From NCBI GenBank assembly GCA_937898665.1, contig CALEIY010000127.1, forward strand, positions 9,810 through 41,809: a stretch of DNA of 32,000 bases, given 5' to 3'. Each line of letters opens with the position of its first letter. Within the stretch, counting starts at the first letter, position 1. The stretch comes from Candidatus Bathyarchaeota archaeon. GTDB taxonomy: Archaea > Thermoproteota > Bathyarchaeia > TCS64 > B23. A model generated the notes under the pieces. It made no database searches. It saw only the letters and a program-made list of their open reading frames with translations, and was not told the origin of the DNA. Shown piece by piece: positions 5,024-32,000 of this stretch. Made by a program: the position numbers and the translations under genes.

Positions 5024-6586
5024 GTGTCGAGGTTGCTGGCGATTGTGGGAGGCAGGATCATCGATGGAACGGGTCGTGAACCCATAGAGGATGGAGTCAT
5101 CCTCGTCGAAGGCGGCAGGATAAAGGCCGTCGGCAGACGGGGGGAGGTTGAGATACCGGAGGACGCCGAGGTCATCGATGCCTCAGGTAAAACCGTTCTG
5201 CCAGGCCTCATAGACGCCCACTGCCACTTCCTCATGATGGGCCTCGGCCTACTGAGATACATAGACCTAAGTGAGGCCAAGAGCCTCAAGGAGGCCCTTG
5301 AATTGGTGAGGAAGCGCGTCGAGGAGACCCCGAAGGGGCAGTGGGTTCTAGGCCGTGGATGGGATGAGAGCCACTGGCCTGAGCGGAGATACATAACGAA
5401 GGAGGACCTCGACCCCATAGCCCCAGACAACCCCGTGATGCTGGTGAGGATCTGCGGCCACCTCATCTCCGTCAACAGCAAGGCTCTGGAGATCGCGGGC
5501 ATAACCAGGGATACGCCGAATCCACCTGGGGGACTCATCGATAAGGGGCCGGATGGAGAGCCGACGGGCATCTTAAGGGACGCCCGTGAACTCATCGAGA
5601 GGGTTATACCGCCGCCGACGGAGGAGGAGGCCCTGGAGGGCTTGAAGAGGGCCTGCGACCTGGCCCTGAGGCTTGGATGCACCAGCATACAGGATGCAGG
5701 TCTCAACCCCTTCGCCCTCAGGGTCTATCAGAGGGCGTGGGAGGAGGGCGTCCTGAAGGTTAGAGCCTATCTCATGCTGGCTGAGGAGGCGGCTGAGGCG
5801 GCTGAGAAGCTGGGCATCAAAACCGGCTTCGGCGACGAGATGCTCCGCATAGGGTCCGTGAAGCTGCTGGCCGACGGCTCCATGGGTGCTAGAACCGCAG
5901 CCCTCTTCGAACCCTATGCCGACGACCCCTCCACCAGGGGGATCTTAACCCTCGAACCCGAGGAGCTCCGGAGGCTGATTAGGGAGGCTCACAGCCGTGG
6001 ATTCCAGGTGGCCGTCCACGCCATCGGCGACAGGGGAATAGAGGAGGTGATAAACGCCATAGAGGAGGCGCTGAGGGAGAATCCCAGACGAGACCACCGG
6101 CATCGAATAGAGCACTGCGAGGTGCTCACCCCAAATCAGATTGAGAGGATTAGGGAGCTGAACCTCATAGCCTCGATGCAGCCAAACTTCGTTGGAAACT
6201 GGAGTGGCCCTGGAGGCATGTATGAAGCCCGCCTAGGACCTGAGAGATTGAGGAGGAACAATCCCTATCGAGTGCTGCTGGATGAGGGTGTCCACGTCGC
6301 CTTCGGCTCAGACTCCATGCCCTTCCACCCCCTCTACGGCATCTGGTCAGCCGTCAACCATCCGATAAGGGAGAATCGCATAAGCGTCGTGGAGGCTGTT
6401 AGATGCTATACATGGGAGTCCGCCTACTCCAGCTTCGAGGAGCATCTTAAGGGGAGCCTTGAGCCTGGGAAGCTGGCCGATATAACCATCGTCGATGGAG
6501 ACATGATCAGGGAGCCTGACCGAATCAAGGATATGGAGGTCTATATGACGATAGTTGGGGGTAGAATCCTCTATCGAAGAGGTTGA
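5024..6586 (+). CDS. Metal-dependent amidohydrolase, YtcJ-like (Amidohydro_3 family), paralog 1
   Basis: N-terminal beta-sandwich (IVGGRIIDGTG..ILVEGGRIKAVG), LPGLIDAHCHF (HxH), AVHAIGD, FGSDS and the C-terminal GSLEPGKLADI motif. The ORF-track start at 4922 would run into hflX, so GTG 5024 or TTG 5033 fits the conserved N-terminus. Confidence 0.9.
   Translation: MSRLLAIVGGRIIDGTGREPIEDGVILVEGGRIKAVGRRGEVEIPEDAEVIDASGKTVLPGLIDAHCHFLMMGLGLLRYIDLSEAKSLKEALELVRKRVEETPKGQWVLGRGWDESHWPERRYITKEDLDPIAPDNPVMLVRICGHLISVNSKALEIAGITRDTPNPPGGLIDKGPDGEPTGILRDARELIERVIPPPTEEEALEGLKRACDLALRLGCTSIQDAGLNPFALRVYQRAWEEGVLKVRAYLMLAEEAAEAAEKLGIKTGFGDEMLRIGSVKLLADGSMGARTAALFEPYADDPSTRGILTLEPEELRRLIREAHSRGFQVAVHAIGDRGIEEVINAIEEALRENPRRDHRHRIEHCEVLTPNQIERIRELNLIASMQPNFVGNWSGPGGMYEARLGPERLRRNNPYRVLLDEGVHVAFGSDSMPFHPLYGIWSAVNHPIRENRISVVEAVRCYTWESAYSSFEEHLKGSLEPGKLADITIVDGDMIREPDRIKDMEVYMTIVGGRILYRRG
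5471..5503. repeat. 33-nt perfect inverted identity tract between the amidohydrolase paralogs (partner 12177..12209)
   Basis: GTCAACAGCAAGGCTCTGGAGATCGCGGGCATA is identical to the reverse complement of 12177-12209. Both are in frame and encode VNSKALEIAGI. Confidence 0.9.
5825..5847. repeat. 23-nt perfect inverted identity tract between the amidohydrolase paralogs (partner 11803..11825)
   Basis: GGCTTCGGCGACGAGATGCTCCG is identical to the reverse complement of 11803-11825 and encodes GFGDEMLR. Confidence 0.85.
6430..6477. repeat. 48-nt perfect inverted identity tract between the amidohydrolase paralogs (partner 11155..11202)
   Basis: CAGCTTCGAGGAGCATCTTAAGGGGAGCCTTGAGCCTGGGAAGCTGGC equals the reverse complement of 11155-11202, checked base by base. 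It encodes SFEEHLKGSLEPGKLA in both genes. Confidence 0.9.
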
Positions 6587-6919: not shown

Positions 6920-8307
6920 GGGATTTAGACTTGAAGCTTGGGCGGGGAGCTAAGTTCATCGCCGTCGCCTCGGCGTCAGCCCTCTCCTTCTACGCCTCCA
7001 GCGGCCTGCTCGCCCAGGGGGAGAGATGCGCCCTGACGCTGTTGATCCTGGCGGCGGGGCTGTGGATGACTGAGGCTCTTCCCCTCGCGGCCACATCGCT
7101 TTTGATACCCCTCCTCCAATCGATGCTGGGCATCCAGGGCTTCCGCGAGGCGCTTCAACCCTTCTTCGACCCCGTTGTCATGCTCCTCTTAGGCGGCTTC
7201 CTCCTAGCCGTAGCCGTCGATAAACATGATCTCGATGAGTATATCGCCCATCAAATCCTATCGAGATTCGGCGGCGATGCGAGGCTTCTAATCCTATTGA
7301 CGATGCTGACAACGGCCCTCCTGTCGATGTGGATCAGCAACACGGCCTCGACAGCTCTAATGCTGGCCATAGCGTTGAGGATGACCGAGGAGGTTAGAGA
7401 TTCGAGGGGGAATCTATCGAAGATCCTGGTCTTGGGAGTCGCCTACTCGGCCACCGTCGGGGGGTTGGCCACCCTCGTTGGGACAACCACCACGGCCATG
7501 GCCGCGGGGATGCTGAGGGAGATGACTGGATATGAGATCACCTTCCTAGGCTGGAGCCTATTAGGGCTGCCGATAACGTTGACCATGATCCCCATCATCT
7601 GGCTTCTCCTCCTAACCCTCTTCCCCACCGATGTGAAACGGCTTCCAACCCTAGAGGTGGAGCTGGAGATGAACCCTAGGCAGAGGTTGACTCTCATCCT
7701 CTTCGCGTCCTCCATAGTTCTATGGGCCACGGGTAGGCTGCCTGAACCCCTCGCAAGGCTGCTAGGCTGGGGTGGACATGGCCTATCCTCTGGGGCAGTC
7801 GCAGCCCTGATAGGATTCCTCCTCTTCCTAACGGGACTCCTCGACGAGCATGACATCTCAAGGGTTGATTGGGGGACGCTACTCCTCATCGGTGGAGGAC
7901 TAAGCCTAGGCTCAGCCCTCAAGGTCTCAGGGCTTACGGCGAGGATCGGGAGAGTCATCCTAAGCCTAGGTGGACTACCAACTTCGATGACCCTACTCCT
8001 AATAGCCTTCCTCAGCCTCGGAGTCAGCATCATAGCGAGCAACACCGCGAGTGCGGGGATCCTGCTACCCATCGTCATCGGCATGAGCGGAGCCATGGGG
8101 ATTAGGGCGAGCATACCCGCGGCCGTAGTCGGCATAGCCACCAGCCTAGACTTCATGCTACCAGTCGGGACGCCGCCCAACGCCATAGCCTATAGCACCG
8201 GCAAGGTCTCGCTGAGGGAGATGATCAAGGCTGGAATCCTCCTAGACATCATAGGCGGCCTCCTGACAACCCTGATGGCCCTCATCCTCTGGCCACATAT
8301 ACTGTGA
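6889..8307 (+). CDS. DASS/SLC13-family anion:Na+ symporter (ArsB/NhaD permease superfamily)
   Basis: Polytopic membrane protein with two hairpin-tip SNT motifs (WISNTASTALMLA and IASNTASAGILLP) plus PVGTPPNAIAY, as in VcINDY-type DASS transporters. The start is ambiguous: ATG 6889 overlaps the preceding ORF, and TTG 6931 is the alternative. Confidence 0.85.
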   Translation: MHHPLLQGALGDLDLKLGRGAKFIAVASASALSFYASSGLLAQGERCALTLLILAAGLWMTEALPLAATSLLIPLLQSMLGIQGFREALQPFFDPVVMLLLGGFLLAVAVDKHDLDEYIAHQILSRFGGDARLLILLTMLTTALLSMWISNTASTALMLAIALRMTEEVRDSRGNLSKILVLGVAYSATVGGLATLVGTTTTAMAAGMLREMTGYEITFLGWSLLGLPITLTMIPIIWLLLLTLFPTDVKRLPTLEVELEMNPRQRLTLILFASSIVLWATGRLPEPLARLLGWGGHGLSSGAVAALIGFLLFLTGLLDEHDISRVDWGTLLLIGGGLSLGSALKVSGLTARIGRVILSLGGLPTSMTLLLIAFLSLGVSIIASNTASAGILLPIVIGMSGAMGIRASIPAAVVGIATSLDFMLPVGTPPNAIAYSTGKVSLREMIKAGILLDIIGGLLTTLMALILWPHIL

Positions 8308-8346
8308 GGATAAGAGTGAAGAGCCTCGTCAACCATAGATCCCGAG

Positions 8347-9126
8347 ATGGGAGTCGTAGAGGAGCTCCTAGAGAGGATAGAGGATGAGAGGGTCGACGAT
8401 CTAACCGTGGAGGAGGCGATTCTAGGCGTCGGATACACGGCCGTCAGGATAGACTCGGGGGATGTAGGCCTATGCCACTCACTTCTAGGGGAGAACCCCT
8501 GTCCCAGGGGAATATCGAAGAGGGCGGGCACCCTCAGAGATATGAAAGCCCTAGAGCTTGCGAGGCTCGCCGCCTCCCAAGACCTAAGTGAGAGGGTCGT
8601 CGGAATGGCGGCCCTAAACGCATTGGCGCATCACATCTTCCAGGAGCATCGATACAGGGTTTGGAGGGGGAACCTCCTCCCACATCTGCTGAGGGAGATT
8701 AAACCCAGCGACACAGTAGTCCTCATAGGCTACATAAGGCCCTTCGAAAAACCCCTGAGGGAGGCATCCTCCAAACTCATAATCCTCGAGAACGATCCCA
8801 CGAGGAGGGGGAGGGCGCTGCCAGGCTCTGAGGCTCCGAGGATCCTCCCCGAGGCCGACATCGTGGTGATCACCGGCAGCAGCATAGCAAATGGAAGCAT
8901 AGACGAGATTCTCAGCCTCTCCCAGGATGCGAGGTTTAAAGCCGTTGTCGGAGCCTCAACGCCGCTCCTCCCCGACCCCCTCTTCGACAGAGGCGTAGAC
9001 GCAGTTGGAGCCTTGAGGGTTGTAGACGCCGACAGCCTCATGCAGATCGTAGCTGAGGGAGGGGGAACTAGGGAGATCAGGAGGGCTGTAAACTACCTCA
9101 ACCTCGCTCCCATCGACGGCTGTTAG
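8347..9126 (+). CDS. DUF4213/DUF364 protein (Rossmann-like 'putative heavy-metal chelation' family)
   Basis: N-terminal ILGVGYTAVRIDSGDVGLCHS matches the DUF4213 pattern. C-terminal ADIVVITGSSIANGSIDEIL...VVGASTPLLPDPLFDRGVDAVGALRVVD matches the DUF364 pattern. Both are recalled from Pfam families. Confidence 0.75.
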   Translation: MGVVEELLERIEDERVDDLTVEEAILGVGYTAVRIDSGDVGLCHSLLGENPCPRGISKRAGTLRDMKALELARLAASQDLSERVVGMAALNALAHHIFQEHRYRVWRGNLLPHLLREIKPSDTVVLIGYIRPFEKPLREASSKLIILENDPTRRGRALPGSEAPRILPEADIVVITGSSIANGSIDEILSLSQDARFKAVVGASTPLLPDPLFDRGVDAVGALRVVDADSLMQIVAEGGGTREIRRAVNYLNLAPIDGC

Positions 9127-10295
9127 ACCTTGACGCTGAACTTCAGGATCGCCAGCCCCACGGCTGAGATGATGAGGGAGAGGGGGAAGATGGCGGGGAG
9201 GCCGTAGACCTCAGCGATTAGGGAGGCGAGCGTCGGCGATAAAGCCCCCATGACGCTTGGGGGGAGGAAGAGGAGGCTGTAAGCTAGGCCTCTATGGCTG
9301 CTGGGTGAGAGCCTAGCGATGATGGAGGAGTTGGCCGGCATACCCAGGGTGGTGAGGAAGCCATAGAGGATGTAGAGGGGAGTGAAGATCAGGGGTGTAG
9401 GCGCGACCGCCGCGAGGGCTATGGAGATATAGGCCCCAGAGAGGGTGAGGAGGAGCCAACGCTTCTCCCCAAACCTCGATGCGAGGAATCCTCCGAGGGG
9501 GGCGGCGAAGATGCCTACTAGGGAGGAGGCTCCATACACGATGCTTGAGACCGCCTGACTCAGCTGTCTAACATCGACGAGGTATAGGGTGATGAAGGAT
9601 GCGATCATCTGACCCCCCATGGTTCTGAGGGAGACGAAGAGGAGGAAGAGGATGAAGCTGAGACTCAACATGCTCGAAGCCTCCTCCACCTCCTCCAACT
9701 CCTCCCCAACATCGAGCTTGGGTTCATATCTGATGGGGAGGATCGAGATGATGCCTACAAGTATAGGTATCAGCCAGAAGAGGTAGACACCCCTCCAGGT
9801 GATGGGGAGGAGCGCCATCAACAGGCCGGCGGATATGGGGCCGAGGGAGAGGCCGAGCGTCCCACCGGCCCCCTGAATCCCAAGGGCCTTGGGGCGATCC
9901 CTCGGGGAGAAAAGCTTTGAAACCAGGCTATAGGCTGCGGGATGATAGATTGCGCTGTTCATATAGACGAGGGAGACGGCGGCCACCAGCATCCAGGGAT
10001 TCATCGACCTCCAGGCCAATAGGCTGCCGAGGGCCGCGATGGAGAGGTTCAGGAGTATCATCCTCTTAGATCCGAATCGATCGGCGAGGAAGCCCATGGG
10101 CAGCGTTAAGAAGGCCTGAATCAGAGGCGGAATCGACGCCATCAACCCCAACTCCCTCAACGAGAGCCTATACTCCTCCCTTATGATGGGGAAGAGGGCG
10201 ATGTGAACCCTCTGGAGGACATGGGTCAGCATGTGGGCTAGGGTGACGGCGAAGAGGGAGTAGCTGAGGATCGAGAGCTTCTCATCCCTCCTCAA
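9123..10295 (-). CDS. MFS transporter
   Basis: About 12 TM segments, with an MFS loop 2-3 signature GFLADRFGSKRM and a second-half equivalent GGFLASRFGEKRW. TTG start. Its 3' end overlaps the DUF364 gene by 4 nt. Confidence 0.85.
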   Translation of the reverse strand: MRRDEKLSILSYSLFAVTLAHMLTHVLQRVHIALFPIIREEYRLSLRELGLMASIPPLIQAFLTLPMGFLADRFGSKRMILLNLSIAALGSLLAWRSMNPWMLVAAVSLVYMNSAIYHPAAYSLVSKLFSPRDRPKALGIQGAGGTLGLSLGPISAGLLMALLPITWRGVYLFWLIPILVGIISILPIRYEPKLDVGEELEEVEEASSMLSLSFILFLLFVSLRTMGGQMIASFITLYLVDVRQLSQAVSSIVYGASSLVGIFAAPLGGFLASRFGEKRWLLLTLSGAYISIALAAVAPTPLIFTPLYILYGFLTTLGMPANSSIIARLSPSSHRGLAYSLLFLPPSVMGALSPTLASLIAEVYGLPAIFPLSLIISAVGLAILKFSVKV

Positions 10296-30327: not shown

Positions 30328-30840
30328 TTGGAGGAGGTTAGGAGGCTTCTCAGGATTAGGGAGGGGCTGGAGGAGAGGATTAGGCGTCTAGAGGGGGAGC
30401 TGGAGGATCTCCGTAGAGTCCTCGCCGAGGTTGATCGATTGATAGCTCACCTCGGCTTTAGGAGGGCTGATGAGGGGGTTGGAAGCTCGGCCTCCTTGAA
30501 GGGGAAGAGCGGGGTTCTCCTGGGAACTCTGAGATGCGATGGGAGATCCATTATCTTTGAGCCTAGAGGCGACGTTGGATTCTCCGCCTCCTCCCCACTT
30601 TTCCGAGTCTTCGTCCTGGAGCGGACTCTGGAGAAGATGAGGAGGGAGGATGAGAGGAGGGCCTCTAAGGGTGAGATATCCCCTGATGATGTTCTCTCCT
30701 ACGAGGTTGAGACCGATGGCGATCGAATTGTTAGACTCGTCATTCGGAATTATGGTGATGAGAGGAGGTTTAGGGAGATTAGAAGCAGTCTTCGATGGGC
30801 CTTCGATAGGATGTATGAGCGGCTTACTTCGAGGGGGTGA
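30328..30840 (+). CDS. Hypothetical protein (N-terminal coiled coil plus an unrecognised domain)
   Basis: 170-aa ORF with gene-like composition, starting with a heptad-like EEVRRLLRIREGLEERIRRLEGELEDLRRVLAEVDRL. TTG start. Its stop overlaps the next ORF start (GTGA). No family recognised. Confidence 0.5.
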   Translation: MEEVRRLLRIREGLEERIRRLEGELEDLRRVLAEVDRLIAHLGFRRADEGVGSSASLKGKSGVLLGTLRCDGRSIIFEPRGDVGFSASSPLFRVFVLERTLEKMRREDERRASKGEISPDDVLSYEVETDGDRIVRLVIRNYGDERRFREIRSSLRWAFDRMYERLTSRG

Positions 30841-31094
30841 GTCGCTTGGACGACGATCTAGAGCGAAGCCCCCTCTGGCTGATCCTCGTGGAGGTGGTTC
30901 ACAGACTGCCGATGTATAGGTATCATAAAGCCTATGTCAGGGATCACATCCTCCTAGAGGATCCCGAGATAACGGCTGAGGAGCTCTCGAAGAGACTTGA
31001 TATACCCTTGGGGGAGGCCCTGGTCATACTCAGCGAGCTTAGAGGCGGCTTAAAGGAATCTAAGCAGCATGAAGGCGAGGAGGATGAAGTCTAG
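30837..31094 (+). CDS. Hypothetical small protein, possible HTH, acidic tail
   Basis: 85 aa. ITAEELSKRLDIPLGEALVILSEL looks like a helix-turn-helix, and the C-terminal tail EGEEDEV is acidic. GTG start coupled to the upstream ORF. Confidence 0.4.
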   Translation: MSRLDDDLERSPLWLILVEVVHRLPMYRYHKAYVRDHILLEDPEITAEELSKRLDIPLGEALVILSELRGGLKESKQHEGEEDEV

Positions 31095-31244
31095 GGCGAT
31101 GACGATCATGGAGGCTGTGAAGATGATCCACCAGACTCCTCCACGCCTGTAGGCTTTATTGAGGGCTTCTCTTAAGTCTCTGGCGACGTTTAGGATTCGA
31201 TCCAGGAATCCCTTAGACAATTCAATATGTAAACTTACATCCAC
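31050..31244 (-). CDS. Hypothetical small tail-anchored membrane protein
   Basis: C-terminal TM segment VWWIIFTASMIVIALDFILLAFMLL. TTTTAAAT at 31245-31252 suggests transcription starting near TTG 31220 rather than GTG 31244. It overlaps the convergent ORF by 45 nt. Weak call. Confidence 0.3.
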   Translation of the reverse strand: MDVSLHIELSKGFLDRILNVARDLREALNKAYRRGGVWWIIFTASMIVIALDFILLAFMLLRFL

Positions 31245-31257
31245 ATTTAAAACTATG

Positions 31258-31836
31258 CTACTCGACCACGTATCTATATGAGATGTATTCGCCGGCTGTC
31301 TCGCTTCTACCCCTTATCCTGATGATGTCTCCAGGCTCCGCCCCTAGGATTATAGCCACGGGGTCTGAGGCCTTTATCCAGGGGAGTTGATAGGGCTTCA
31401 CGTGATAGCGCTCCAGCACCTCTCTCTTCTCCTCCTCTGAGAGGATCTCATGTATTGGAACCAGCTCATGCTGGAAGATATCGAAGGCTGGGAGACTTGG
31501 AGGTATAAGCTCTATGAGGCGTCCACGCCCCTCACGTTCGGCCTCCTCGTTAAGCTTCTCAACGGTGCTTCGGGCGGAGTATGTGTAGTGCCCCCCGCCG
31601 ATGAGGATTCCCCTCACGGCGCCTAGCTCCTCCACCTTCTCCTTCAGATCTCTGATATAGGAGATTCCGATCGTCTTCTCGCCCAGGACGCAAAGTATGA
31701 CATAGCGATCGCCGTTCTTCCTCAGATAGTAGTAGATCCGGTTTCCCTCACGCTCAACATCCTCAATCTCTAGGCCCCTATACTTTATGATGAGGGCTGC
31801 CCGACGCTCCTCTAGGCTCTCAGCCTCTAACGTCAT
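31258..31836 (-). CDS. rpoH: RNA polymerase subunit H (Rpo5) with an approximately 117-aa N-terminal extension (Rpb5-like full-length architecture)
   Basis: The C-terminal 75 aa (HELVPIHEILSEEEKREVLERYHVKPYQLPWIKASDPVAIILGAEPGDIIRIRGRSETAGEYISYRYVV) are canonical RpoH. ATG 31836 overlaps the rpoP stop (ATGA). There is no in-frame start codon just upstream of the RpoH domain. Confidence 0.9.
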   Translation of the reverse strand: MTLEAESLEERRAALIIKYRGLEIEDVEREGNRIYYYLRKNGDRYVILCVLGEKTIGISYIRDLKEKVEELGAVRGILIGGGHYTYSARSTVEKLNEEAEREGRGRLIELIPPSLPAFDIFQHELVPIHEILSEEEKREVLERYHVKPYQLPWIKASDPVAIILGAEPGDIIRIRGRSETAGEYISYRYVVE

Positions 31837-32000
31837 CTCGCCTTCACCCTCTTAACAACTGGAGGCCTAACCTTCCTGAAGATGCGATAACCACACTGGG
31901 GACATCGAAATGAGACGTAGCGCTCCAACTCTGAGTAGGCGACTCGACTGCCGCAGCGGACACATTCATAGATCGGGCCTCTAGGCCTCTCCTCCTCCAA
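31833..32000 (-). CDS. rpoP: RNA polymerase subunit P (Rpo12/Rpb12 homolog); complete or truncated at the window edge
   Basis: The minus strand reads (L)EEERPRGPIYECVRCGSRVAYSELERYVSFRCPQCGYRIFRKVRPPVVKRVKAR*, a CxxC...CxxC zinc ribbon with the RPP..K.VKA tail typical of RpoP. The TTG at 32000-31998 could be the start. Not in the ORF track. Confidence 0.8.
   Translation of the reverse strand: MEEERPRGPIYECVRCGSRVAYSELERYVSFRCPQCGYRIFRKVRPPVVKRVKAR

Follow-up and report, generated by a model that had tools for sequence, protein, structure and literature searches.

A stretch of 32,000 nucleotides from a Candidatus Bathyarchaeota archaeon (assembly GCA_937898665.1, contig CALEIY010000127.1; hereafter the window) encodes on its minus strand, at positions 31258-31836, a long, 192-amino-acid form of RpoH (Rpo5), subunit H of the archaeal RNA polymerase (RNAP). 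We consider it probable that this gene, rpoH (rpo5), specifies a single two-domain Rpo5/H subunit, coupled with rpoP, in which a nuclease-dead domain of the Mrr type, homologous to the 'jaw' module of eukaryotic Rpb5, is joined to the RpoH domain proper.

An earlier examination of this stretch from its letters alone (the sequence-only reading) had described a 192-amino-acid open reading frame (ORF) in which the N-terminal extension and the RpoH domain belong to the same polypeptide, and the start codons, substitution rates and homologues all bear this out. The minus-strand frame opens with an ATG (31836-31834) and closes with a TAG (31258-31260); as had been noted, the start overlaps the stop codon of rpoP, the TGA of the upstream zinc-ribbon ORF (31835-31833), in the form ATGA, and the junction of the two genes reads ...GCGAGATGACG. 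In-frame ATG, GTG or TTG codons are found only at codons 1, 68, 74, 140, 146, 160 and 190. The earlier statement that some 25 codons preceding the RpoH domain contain no start was conservative: there is none in codons 75-139, and therefore no canonical internal start is available for a stand-alone RpoH domain. Nei-Gojobori estimates of the ratio of nonsynonymous to synonymous substitution rates (dN/dS), calculated for the window gene against five related loci, are 0.03-0.10 for residues 1-114 and 0.03-0.14 for residues 115-192, so that the N-terminal half is constrained as strongly as the RpoH domain. Both halves are thus under strong purifying selection, and the N-terminal half is coding sequence, not a chance extension of the ORF. 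Moreover, a protein search with the N-terminal part only returned 103 proteins, nearly all of them 179-193 amino acids long and carrying the C-terminal Pfam domain PF01191, and 36 diverse full-length homologues share 47 invariant positions that are distributed over both halves. Translation of the C-terminal part alone was considered and rejected, given the lack of a usable internal start and the low dN/dS of the N-terminal half.

The C-terminal part, which had been called an unambiguous RpoH domain (residues 118-192), is recognized as such by both Pfam and NCBIfam. Residues 118-190 (31267-31485, minus strand), the predicted anchor on Rpo1, match Pfam RNA_pol_Rpb5_C (PF01191) with E 1.7e-29 and 101.8 bits against a cut-off of 23.5, and the NCBIfam RpoH equivalog NF007129 is matched above its cut-off of 83 by residues 117-192 (102.3 bits). 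The nearest solved relative is RpoH of Thermococcus kodakarensis (E 1.7e-23), with 60% identity over 75 columns in the Foldseek comparison. In yeast Rpb5, the residues critical for binding the largest subunit are H147, P151, D182, R200 and R212. Four residues of the window protein that are invariant in the 36 homologues, H123, P127, D158 and R188, would be the counterparts of H147, P151, D182 and R212, respectively, as judged from the sequences read by eye without a computed alignment.

The N-terminal domain (residues 1-114; 31495-31836, minus strand) is predicted to be an inactivated Mrr-like domain. In the full-length AlphaFold2 model built from the family alignment (predicted local distance difference test, pLDDT, 93.3; predicted template modelling score, pTM, 0.86), the N-terminal half has the topology alpha-beta-beta-beta-alpha-beta-alpha-beta, that is, the PD-(D/E)XK core; together with the matches to Mrr_cat and NA-iREase1 described below, this sustains the Mrr/restriction-endonuclease-like fold proposed by the sequence-only reading. 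When this predicted model is compared with the PDB using Foldseek, the 34 best matches are full-length Rpb5 chains (E 3e-15 to 6e-11), including RPB5 of African swine fever virus (ASFV), and the best superpositions on Rpb5 extend over approximately 200-210 columns, with a template modelling score on the query (TMq) of 0.75-0.79, a root-mean-square deviation (rmsd) of about 3.1-3.8 A and 24-30% identity. Alignments to short archaeal RpoH chains are limited to 75 columns (TMq 0.37-0.38). The length of the Rpb5 alignments indicates that, in the model, both domains fit Rpb5 at once, mutual orientation included; thus the structural comparison that the sequence-only reading had proposed ranks full-length Rpb5 first, with both domains superposed. 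Modelled alone with AlphaFold2, the N-terminal domain reaches a pLDDT of 94.3, and the Rpb5_N matches to this isolated model cover 80 columns at an rmsd of 2.0-2.8 A. Alignment of the Bathyarchaeia homologues further reveals an insertion of approximately 11 residues, NEEAEREGRGRL (about residues 96-107; 31516-31551, minus strand), which follows helix alpha3, precedes the final strand of the domain and is confined to the clade of the window protein (P0001-P0011 in our protein collection, including Bathyarchaeota archaeon B23).

At the sequence level, the N-terminal domain is linked both to Mrr-like nucleases and to Rpb5. All 33 archaeal N-domains match Mrr_cat (PF04471) and NA-iREase1 (PF22722), with a best E of 2e-10; the isolated window domain scores 21.3 bits on Mrr_cat against a cut-off of 21 (19.4 bits in the full-length context), and its best Pfam match is an 'inactive REase' family. 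A profile of 33 archaeal long-RpoH N-domains (A5), devoid of C-domain residues and of viral sequence, retrieves from the PDB only Rpb5, in 11 distinct sequences with E 1.3e-6 to 5.6e-3, the next match being at 0.31. With hhalign, A5 aligns to eukaryotic Rpb5_N over 83 columns at 91.9% probability and E 7e-7, where the eukaryotic alignment comprises yeast, K. phaffii, S. pombe and human sequences (yeast and human checked residue by residue against the PDB, the other two copied from PDB alignments). The register is the one that the sequence-only reading had found by eye against yeast Rpb5, with the TIGISYIRDL block matched and YTYSA opposite ITPSA. A control profile of 12 stand-alone, catalytically intact Mrr-like domains (A6) detects only nucleases in the PDB, and those weakly; hhalign relates it weakly to Rpb5_N (11%, E 2.7e-3) and closely to A5 (99.4%, E 9e-22). 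Given that A5 is close to both Mrr and Rpb5_N whereas A6 is only weakly similar to Rpb5_N, the archaeal domain represents a sequence intermediate. A search of 1.84 billion representative sequences with the Bathyarchaeia N-domain profile recovered many divergent long RpoH proteins, with about 25% mutual identity in the N-terminal part, along with one metagenomic giant-virus Rpb5 (P0187, E 8e-4), whose contig encodes F-box and VID27 proteins. An earlier broad N-domain profile that included this viral sequence (A3) reached E 4e-8 to Rpb5, and the signal held in A5, which is free of it. The resemblance of the N-terminal domain to the Rpb5 'jaw', first suggested from the letters alone, is therefore supported by structure, by the A5 profile and by hhalign.

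Across all archaeal long-RpoH N-domains, in A3 as in A5, the only invariant positions are R20 and G57. The former belongs to the motif Y19-R20-G21-L22 (31771-31782, minus strand), where it closes helix alpha1, in a block that hhalign aligns with the eukaryotic DRGY; the motif reads YRGL in the window protein and RGY, RGF or RAY in most non-Bathyarchaeia forms. In yeast, the R26E substitution in this 'invariant DRGY motif' is lethal (PMC1802627). The second shared element is the loop Y84-T85-Y86-S87-A88 (31573-31587, minus strand), aligned with the eukaryotic I/M-T-P-S-A; T85 is kept in at least 90% of the sequences, and the Thorarchaeota forms read FTPAA. The (I/M)TPSA loop faces the DNA cleft, with yeast P118 exposed to it (PMC1802627). 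Relative to intact Mrr-like domains, DGGID is replaced by GNRIY and VQCK by ILCV in the window protein. The Thor and Prometheus forms lack both catalytic motifs, the Heimdall form keeps the Asp and lacks (E/Q)xK, and no invariant Asp or Lys is present in the catalytic strands of the family alignments. As judged from these residues, the N-terminal domain is nuclease-dead, like Rpb5_N. An insertion that follows the first strand lengthens the eukaryotic module by about 30 residues; it is absent from the archaeal forms and appears in hhalign as a gap of approximately 16-20 residues on the archaeal side.

The gene immediately upstream on the same strand, rpoP (rpo12), encodes the zinc-ribbon subunit and runs to the window edge (31833-32000, minus strand). 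In the PDB, its product is matched best, and over its full length, by archaeal Rpo12/P chains (E 1.5e-7 to 1.4e-6), and its top NCBIfam matches are five RpoP models, all below their equivalog cut-offs. A scan with N-domain peptide patterns in one genome per GTDB species, which is uninformative on short rpoH copies because only N-domain patterns were used, yielded 69 long rpoH loci, nearly all titled Bathyarchaeota or Bathyarchaeia (at least 69 species); rpoP lies directly upstream on the same strand in 66 of these 69 Bathyarchaeia loci. Signature motifs of rpoB and rpoA are absent from the 32-kb window and from 73 related loci. The arrangement that had been described, an rpoP-rpoH pair that is not located upstream of rpoB/rpoA, is nearly general among the long forms of Bathyarchaeia. 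Named members of the long RpoH class are also found in the Asgard archaea, namely in Heimdallarchaeota, Thorarchaeota, Promethearchaeota and Odinarchaeota, and at all five inspected divergent loci outside Bathyarchaeia the long gene is away from rpoB. With long RpoH common in Bathyarchaeia and Asgard, the window gene is therefore one member of a large class.

All proteins returned when the C-domain served as the query were 133 amino acids long or shorter; 120 of them were listed, many named Bathyarchaeota or Bathyarchaeia. Since the list lacks correctly annotated long forms, it serves here to survey entries annotated as short. YTYSA and/or IELIP stands among the first residues of at least 16 of these 120 proteins, which places their annotated start within the N-domain. 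At one such locus (L079 in our collection, 5764-6315), annotated at 104 amino acids, the ORF has 183 and begins at a TTG two bases beyond the rpoP stop, in a synteny like that of the window; at another, on the closed chromosome CP070679.1 (L080, 5791-6348), an annotated protein of 115 amino acids corresponds to an ORF of 185. Truncation of this kind also occurs among entries from Thorarchaeota. Public annotations shorten long rpoH to 79-127 amino acids through an internal start, and the real starts are often TTG. Such truncation probably helps to explain why the long form went unnoticed, and some JGI entries already bear the eukaryotic name 'RPABC1'. Genuine short rpoH genes (84-89 amino acids) also exist, in rpoH-rpoB-rpoA operons with no N-domain encoded upstream (L078, 6001-6255, and the 89-amino-acid class L081-L090). 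Since both long and short loci are found, there are two configurations among Bathyarchaeota-labelled genomes. No assembly with both a long and a short rpoH was encountered among the long-form and the sampled short-form genomes, and in the C-domain list there is a single entry each from CP070679.1 and from a 1.50-Mb contig, in both cases the long gene. This suggests that the long form is the sole subunit H in the genomes where it is present. Furthermore, the gain of the N-domain and the relocation beside rpoP seem to go together and to be lineage-specific.

Several loci and proteins show further variations on this architecture. A Thorarchaeota-like contig (L073) carries two tandem long rpoH paralogues (7001-7564 and 7639-8193), and second, divergent long-rpoH loci, without a preceding rpoP, are present in the metagenome-assembled genomes (MAGs) BS750m-G28 and binchicken_co383_203 (L065 and L069, respectively); the copy at L069 is split by a frameshift, and its neighbours, from ORF translations read by eye, look like TFB and Alba. 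One protein cluster (P0139, 481 amino acids; P0164, 378 amino acids) combines RpoH with up to three consecutive Mrr-like N-modules, and the module of P0139 that adjoins the C-domain has a weak match to Pfam Rpb5_N (E 0.009, 17.1 bits, cut-off 27). There are also stand-alone Mrr-like proteins of Bathyarchaeota (P0144, 235 amino acids; P0158, 196 amino acids) in which R-G-Y/R-D-Y is present and QxK is absent, a member of the P0158 cluster being named 'restriction endonuclease [Candidatus Bathyarchaeota archaeon]'; the RpoH N-domain may have come from a relative of these proteins.

Comparison with characterized systems helps to place the long RpoH. Eukaryotic Rpb5 (RPABC1, part of Pol I, II and III; yeast structure 1DZF) has the same domain order, a PD-(D/E)XK N-module followed by Rpb5_C, and its whole chain superposes on the predicted model. 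Common to both are the nuclease-dead N-module, the R-G-Y motif, the T-x-S-A loop and the terminal strand I-E-x-[IF]. The archaeal N-module, however, comprises 98-115 amino acids compared with approximately 140-145 in eukaryotic Rpb5; unlike the latter, long RpoH fails the PF03871 threshold, is still recognizably Mrr-like and resides in an archaeon with a single RNAP. The canonical archaeal RpoH (75-90 amino acids; Thermococcus 4QIW_H, Sulfolobus 2WAQ_H, M. jannaschii 1HMJ) has the same C-domain, with 51-60% identity by Foldseek, whereas the long form adds an N-domain of 114 amino acids and its gene follows rpoP instead of preceding rpoB-rpoA, the latter being a location that typifies RpoH genes but does not define them. 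The giant-virus Rpb5 (ASFV D205R, 8Q3B_E) provides a two-domain form outside eukaryotic cells, aligned over about 210 columns with a TM of 0.67; it is, however, eukaryotic in type, whereas the window protein has a typically archaeal C-domain. The Mrr_cat/NA-iREase1 domains (AF1548 = 1Y88, MspJI) have the same fold and the common motifs vG(I/V)..vR(D/E)L, GIL(I/V), (F/Y)T.sA and IELI; in contrast to them, the N-domain of long RpoH no longer has the catalytic D and (E/Q)xK, is joined to an RNAP subunit and has gained the invariant Arg of RGY. Rpo13 of the Sulfolobales RNAP is a lineage-specific addition located beside Rpo5 at the downstream DNA channel (PMC13257274, PMC7289017). It is comparable as a functional analogue only, being an unrelated small helix-turn-helix protein encoded by a separate gene, and no homology to it is claimed.

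Several observations weigh against the interpretation of the window gene as an Rpb5-like two-domain subunit. The Pfam family for the eukaryotic module itself, RNA_pol_Rpb5_N (PF03871), is not matched by the window protein at E up to 10, nor by any of 31 Bathyarchaeia N-domains, and among the 33 archaeal N-domains there are only three weak matches (best E 0.0095); of the two Pfam comparisons that the sequence-only reading had envisaged, the one with Mrr_cat thus gave a match and the one with PF03871 did not. We do not take this miss as absence of homology because the broader profiles are significant. Nevertheless, the best PDB match of the Bathyarchaeia-only N-domain profile, Drosophila Rpb5, is at E 0.033 only, and its hhalign comparison with eukaryotic Rpb5_N is also weak (E 0.019). 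Significance with respect to Rpb5_N is reached with the broader archaeal family; the signals of the window protein and of the Bathyarchaeia set by themselves are marginal. The isolated N-domain model matches AF1548, the nuclease domain of MspJI and Rpb5_N about equally (E ~8e-4), such that the predicted fold alone does not discriminate among the three, and the inter-domain orientation in the full-length model could have been partly learned, given that AlphaFold training included Pol II structures. In the C-domain, the position of yeast R200 appears, by eye, to be occupied by G176. Genuine short rpoH genes are retained beside rpoB in other genomes that bear a Bathyarchaeia or Bathyarchaeota label, and a second, short copy could therefore also exist elsewhere in the genome of the window. 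Finally, the proposed contacts of the jaw proline with DNA are dispensable in yeast (PMC1802627), and the DNA-contact function is therefore uncertain even in eukaryotes.

Four other explanations can be weighed against the same data. Under a paralogue scenario, a canonical short rpoH beside rpoB would be the true subunit and the long form would have an alternative or regulatory role, or act outside RNAP. The genuine short rpoH genes in rpoH-rpoB-rpoA operons of Bathyarchaeia- or Bathyarchaeota-labelled MAGs and the existence of duplicated long copies (L019/L065, L012/L069 and the tandem pair of L073) fit such a role, but no assembly prefix is common to the long-form and the sampled short-form genomes, two complete or near-complete Bathyarchaeia chromosomes each show a single RpoH-C-domain gene among the listed C-domain matches, the long one, the C-domain is conserved like that of canonical RpoH (the equivalog is passed, and dN/dS is 0.03-0.14), and the gene shares an operon with that of the core subunit RpoP in 66 of 69 species; we therefore hold this scenario to be unlikely. 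Convergent fusion, whereby archaea and the eukaryotic stem lineage would each have fused a Mrr-like domain to RpoH on their own, with only the superfamily fold in common, draws on the far better match of the N-domain to Mrr_cat/NA-iREase1 than to Pfam Rpb5_N, on the hhalign E of 9e-22 to Mrr versus 7e-7 to Rpb5_N, and on the N-domain model alone, which fits AF1548 and MspJI as well as it fits Rpb5. We consider it quite unlikely nonetheless: Rpb5_N resembles the RpoH-fused domains much more than it does intact Mrr domains (E 2.7e-3, 11% for the latter); the profile of the fused domains leads only to Rpb5 in the PDB, whereas the Mrr profile leads only to nucleases; the N-terminal position, the inter-domain geometry, the loss of catalytic residues and the R-G-Y arginine are common to both; and Asgard archaea, to which eukaryotes are most closely related, have the long form as well.

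Horizontal transfer, that is, capture of a eukaryotic or giant-virus Rpb5 by archaea, would be in line with the giant-virus Rpb5 P0187 among the matches of the archaeal N-domain profile, yet it appears very improbable in view of a C-domain of the usual archaeal RpoH kind (60% identity with Thermococcus), N-domains whose similarity to prokaryotic Mrr far exceeds that of eukaryotic Rpb5_N, the absence from archaeal forms of the insertion that in eukaryotes separates the first strand from the remainder of the sheet, and a broad and deep spread over Bathyarchaeia and four Asgard groups, with approximately 25% identity between groups. The idea that the N-domain is an active nuclease, which cleaves nucleic acid or acts in defense while tethered to RNAP, could call upon the borderline Mrr_cat score of the isolated domain (21.3 bits versus 21) and on an array of clustered regularly interspaced short palindromic repeats (CRISPR) that adjoins the operon in a related genome. 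It is scarcely credible in the face of the catalytic residues lost in the window, Thor and Prometheus forms (Heimdall keeping the Asp without (E/Q)xK), of strands with no invariant Asp or Lys, and of the 'inactive REase' family as best Pfam match; since the window protein has Tyr in place of the catalytic Asp and Leu-x-Val in place of (E/Q)xK, it was rejected. Returning to homology of the jaw modules, we lean, by a little more than an even chance, towards the view that the two-domain Rpb5 arose in archaea through fusion of an inactivated Mrr domain to RpoH and was inherited by eukaryotes, in which the insertion was added later.

We envisage that rpoP and rpoH would be co-transcribed and translationally coupled, and that the C-terminal 75 residues, as an ordinary RpoH domain, would dock on the largest subunit, with the N-terminal 114 residues forming a nuclease-dead Mrr-type PD-(D/E)XK domain that, according to the predicted model, would be oriented as in Rpb5. 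The long RpoH would assemble into RNAP, presumably as the only RpoH of the window genome, and its N-domain would occupy the jaw position. There, it would lie next to the downstream DNA and might present a surface for factors, contacting DNA or such factors without cutting nucleic acid.

The surroundings of the pair are conserved as well. At every inspected locus, the downstream neighbours are those of the window: an opposite-strand protein of approximately 170-190 amino acids, pyrF and POR subunits. In the window, the first of these is a 170-amino-acid protein (30328-30840, plus strand) without a Pfam or NCBIfam family, whose N-terminus resembles that of its positional counterpart in L012 and L019; ORFs of 170-190 amino acids also occupy this position in L001, L002 and L079. 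It is overlapped by an 85-amino-acid protein (30837-31094, plus strand) with a weak winged-helix match, and a hydrophobic ORF of 64 amino acids (31050-31244, minus strand) directly follows rpoH, which makes three unannotated genes before pyrF. On the other side of the operon, in the related genome GCA_054042865.1 (JBPKUH010000002.1; L001), whose RpoH is 97% identical to that of the window, a CRISPR array (7966-9664) with 27 copies of the 24-nt repeat GAATCTCACAAAGAGAATTGAAAG, 60-68 bp apart, lies upstream of rpoP and ends approximately 160 bp before rpoP-rpoH, a position that would be just beyond the 32000 end of the window. No genes are called in the region of this array; Rfam gave nothing around this operon, and the array was missed by Tandem Repeats Finder and found by another repeat search. 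Three contigs with the Bathyarchaeia-type rpoP-rpoH pair (L025, L029, L031) are filed under MAGs of Krumholzibacteriaceae, Desulfaltia and Patescibacteria, which probably reflects binning contamination of these species-representative genomes.

The N-module of Rpb5 has been described as 'found only in eukarya' (PMC3906176) and as 'typically eukaryotic' (PMC1802627), and a survey of the PD-(D/E)XK superfamily gives its taxonomic range as 'Eukaryota' (PMC3424549). A 2026 survey of the small subunits of archaeal RNAP covers variation in Rpo6 and Rpo8 and does not cover Rpo5 length (PMC13257274). The sequence-only reading had allowed that long RpoH forms might already be common and described in this lineage: common they are, in Bathyarchaeia and in Asgard, whereas no published description of an archaeal long RpoH was found in the full-text literature, from whose coverage most subscription journals are absent. 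Thus, the subunit and the two-domain design are known, and it is the archaeal occurrence and the bridge from Mrr to Rpb5 that appear to be new, the window gene being an ordinary member of an apparently undescribed class.

If this interpretation is correct, one of the few elements common to Pol I, II and III that are still considered exclusively eukaryotic would move back into archaea, as a character of the transcription machinery that links the Asgard archaea and, curiously, also Bathyarchaeia with eukaryotes. The archaeal domain would then provide the missing sequence intermediate, with the jaw derived from a Mrr-type restriction nuclease, and the function of the jaw would become testable in a simpler system with a single polymerase. 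Across these lineages, numerous database records of subunit H start at the wrong codon, and the long RpoH would represent an unrecognized eukaryotic-signature feature, hidden in part by the truncation of genes in annotation pipelines.

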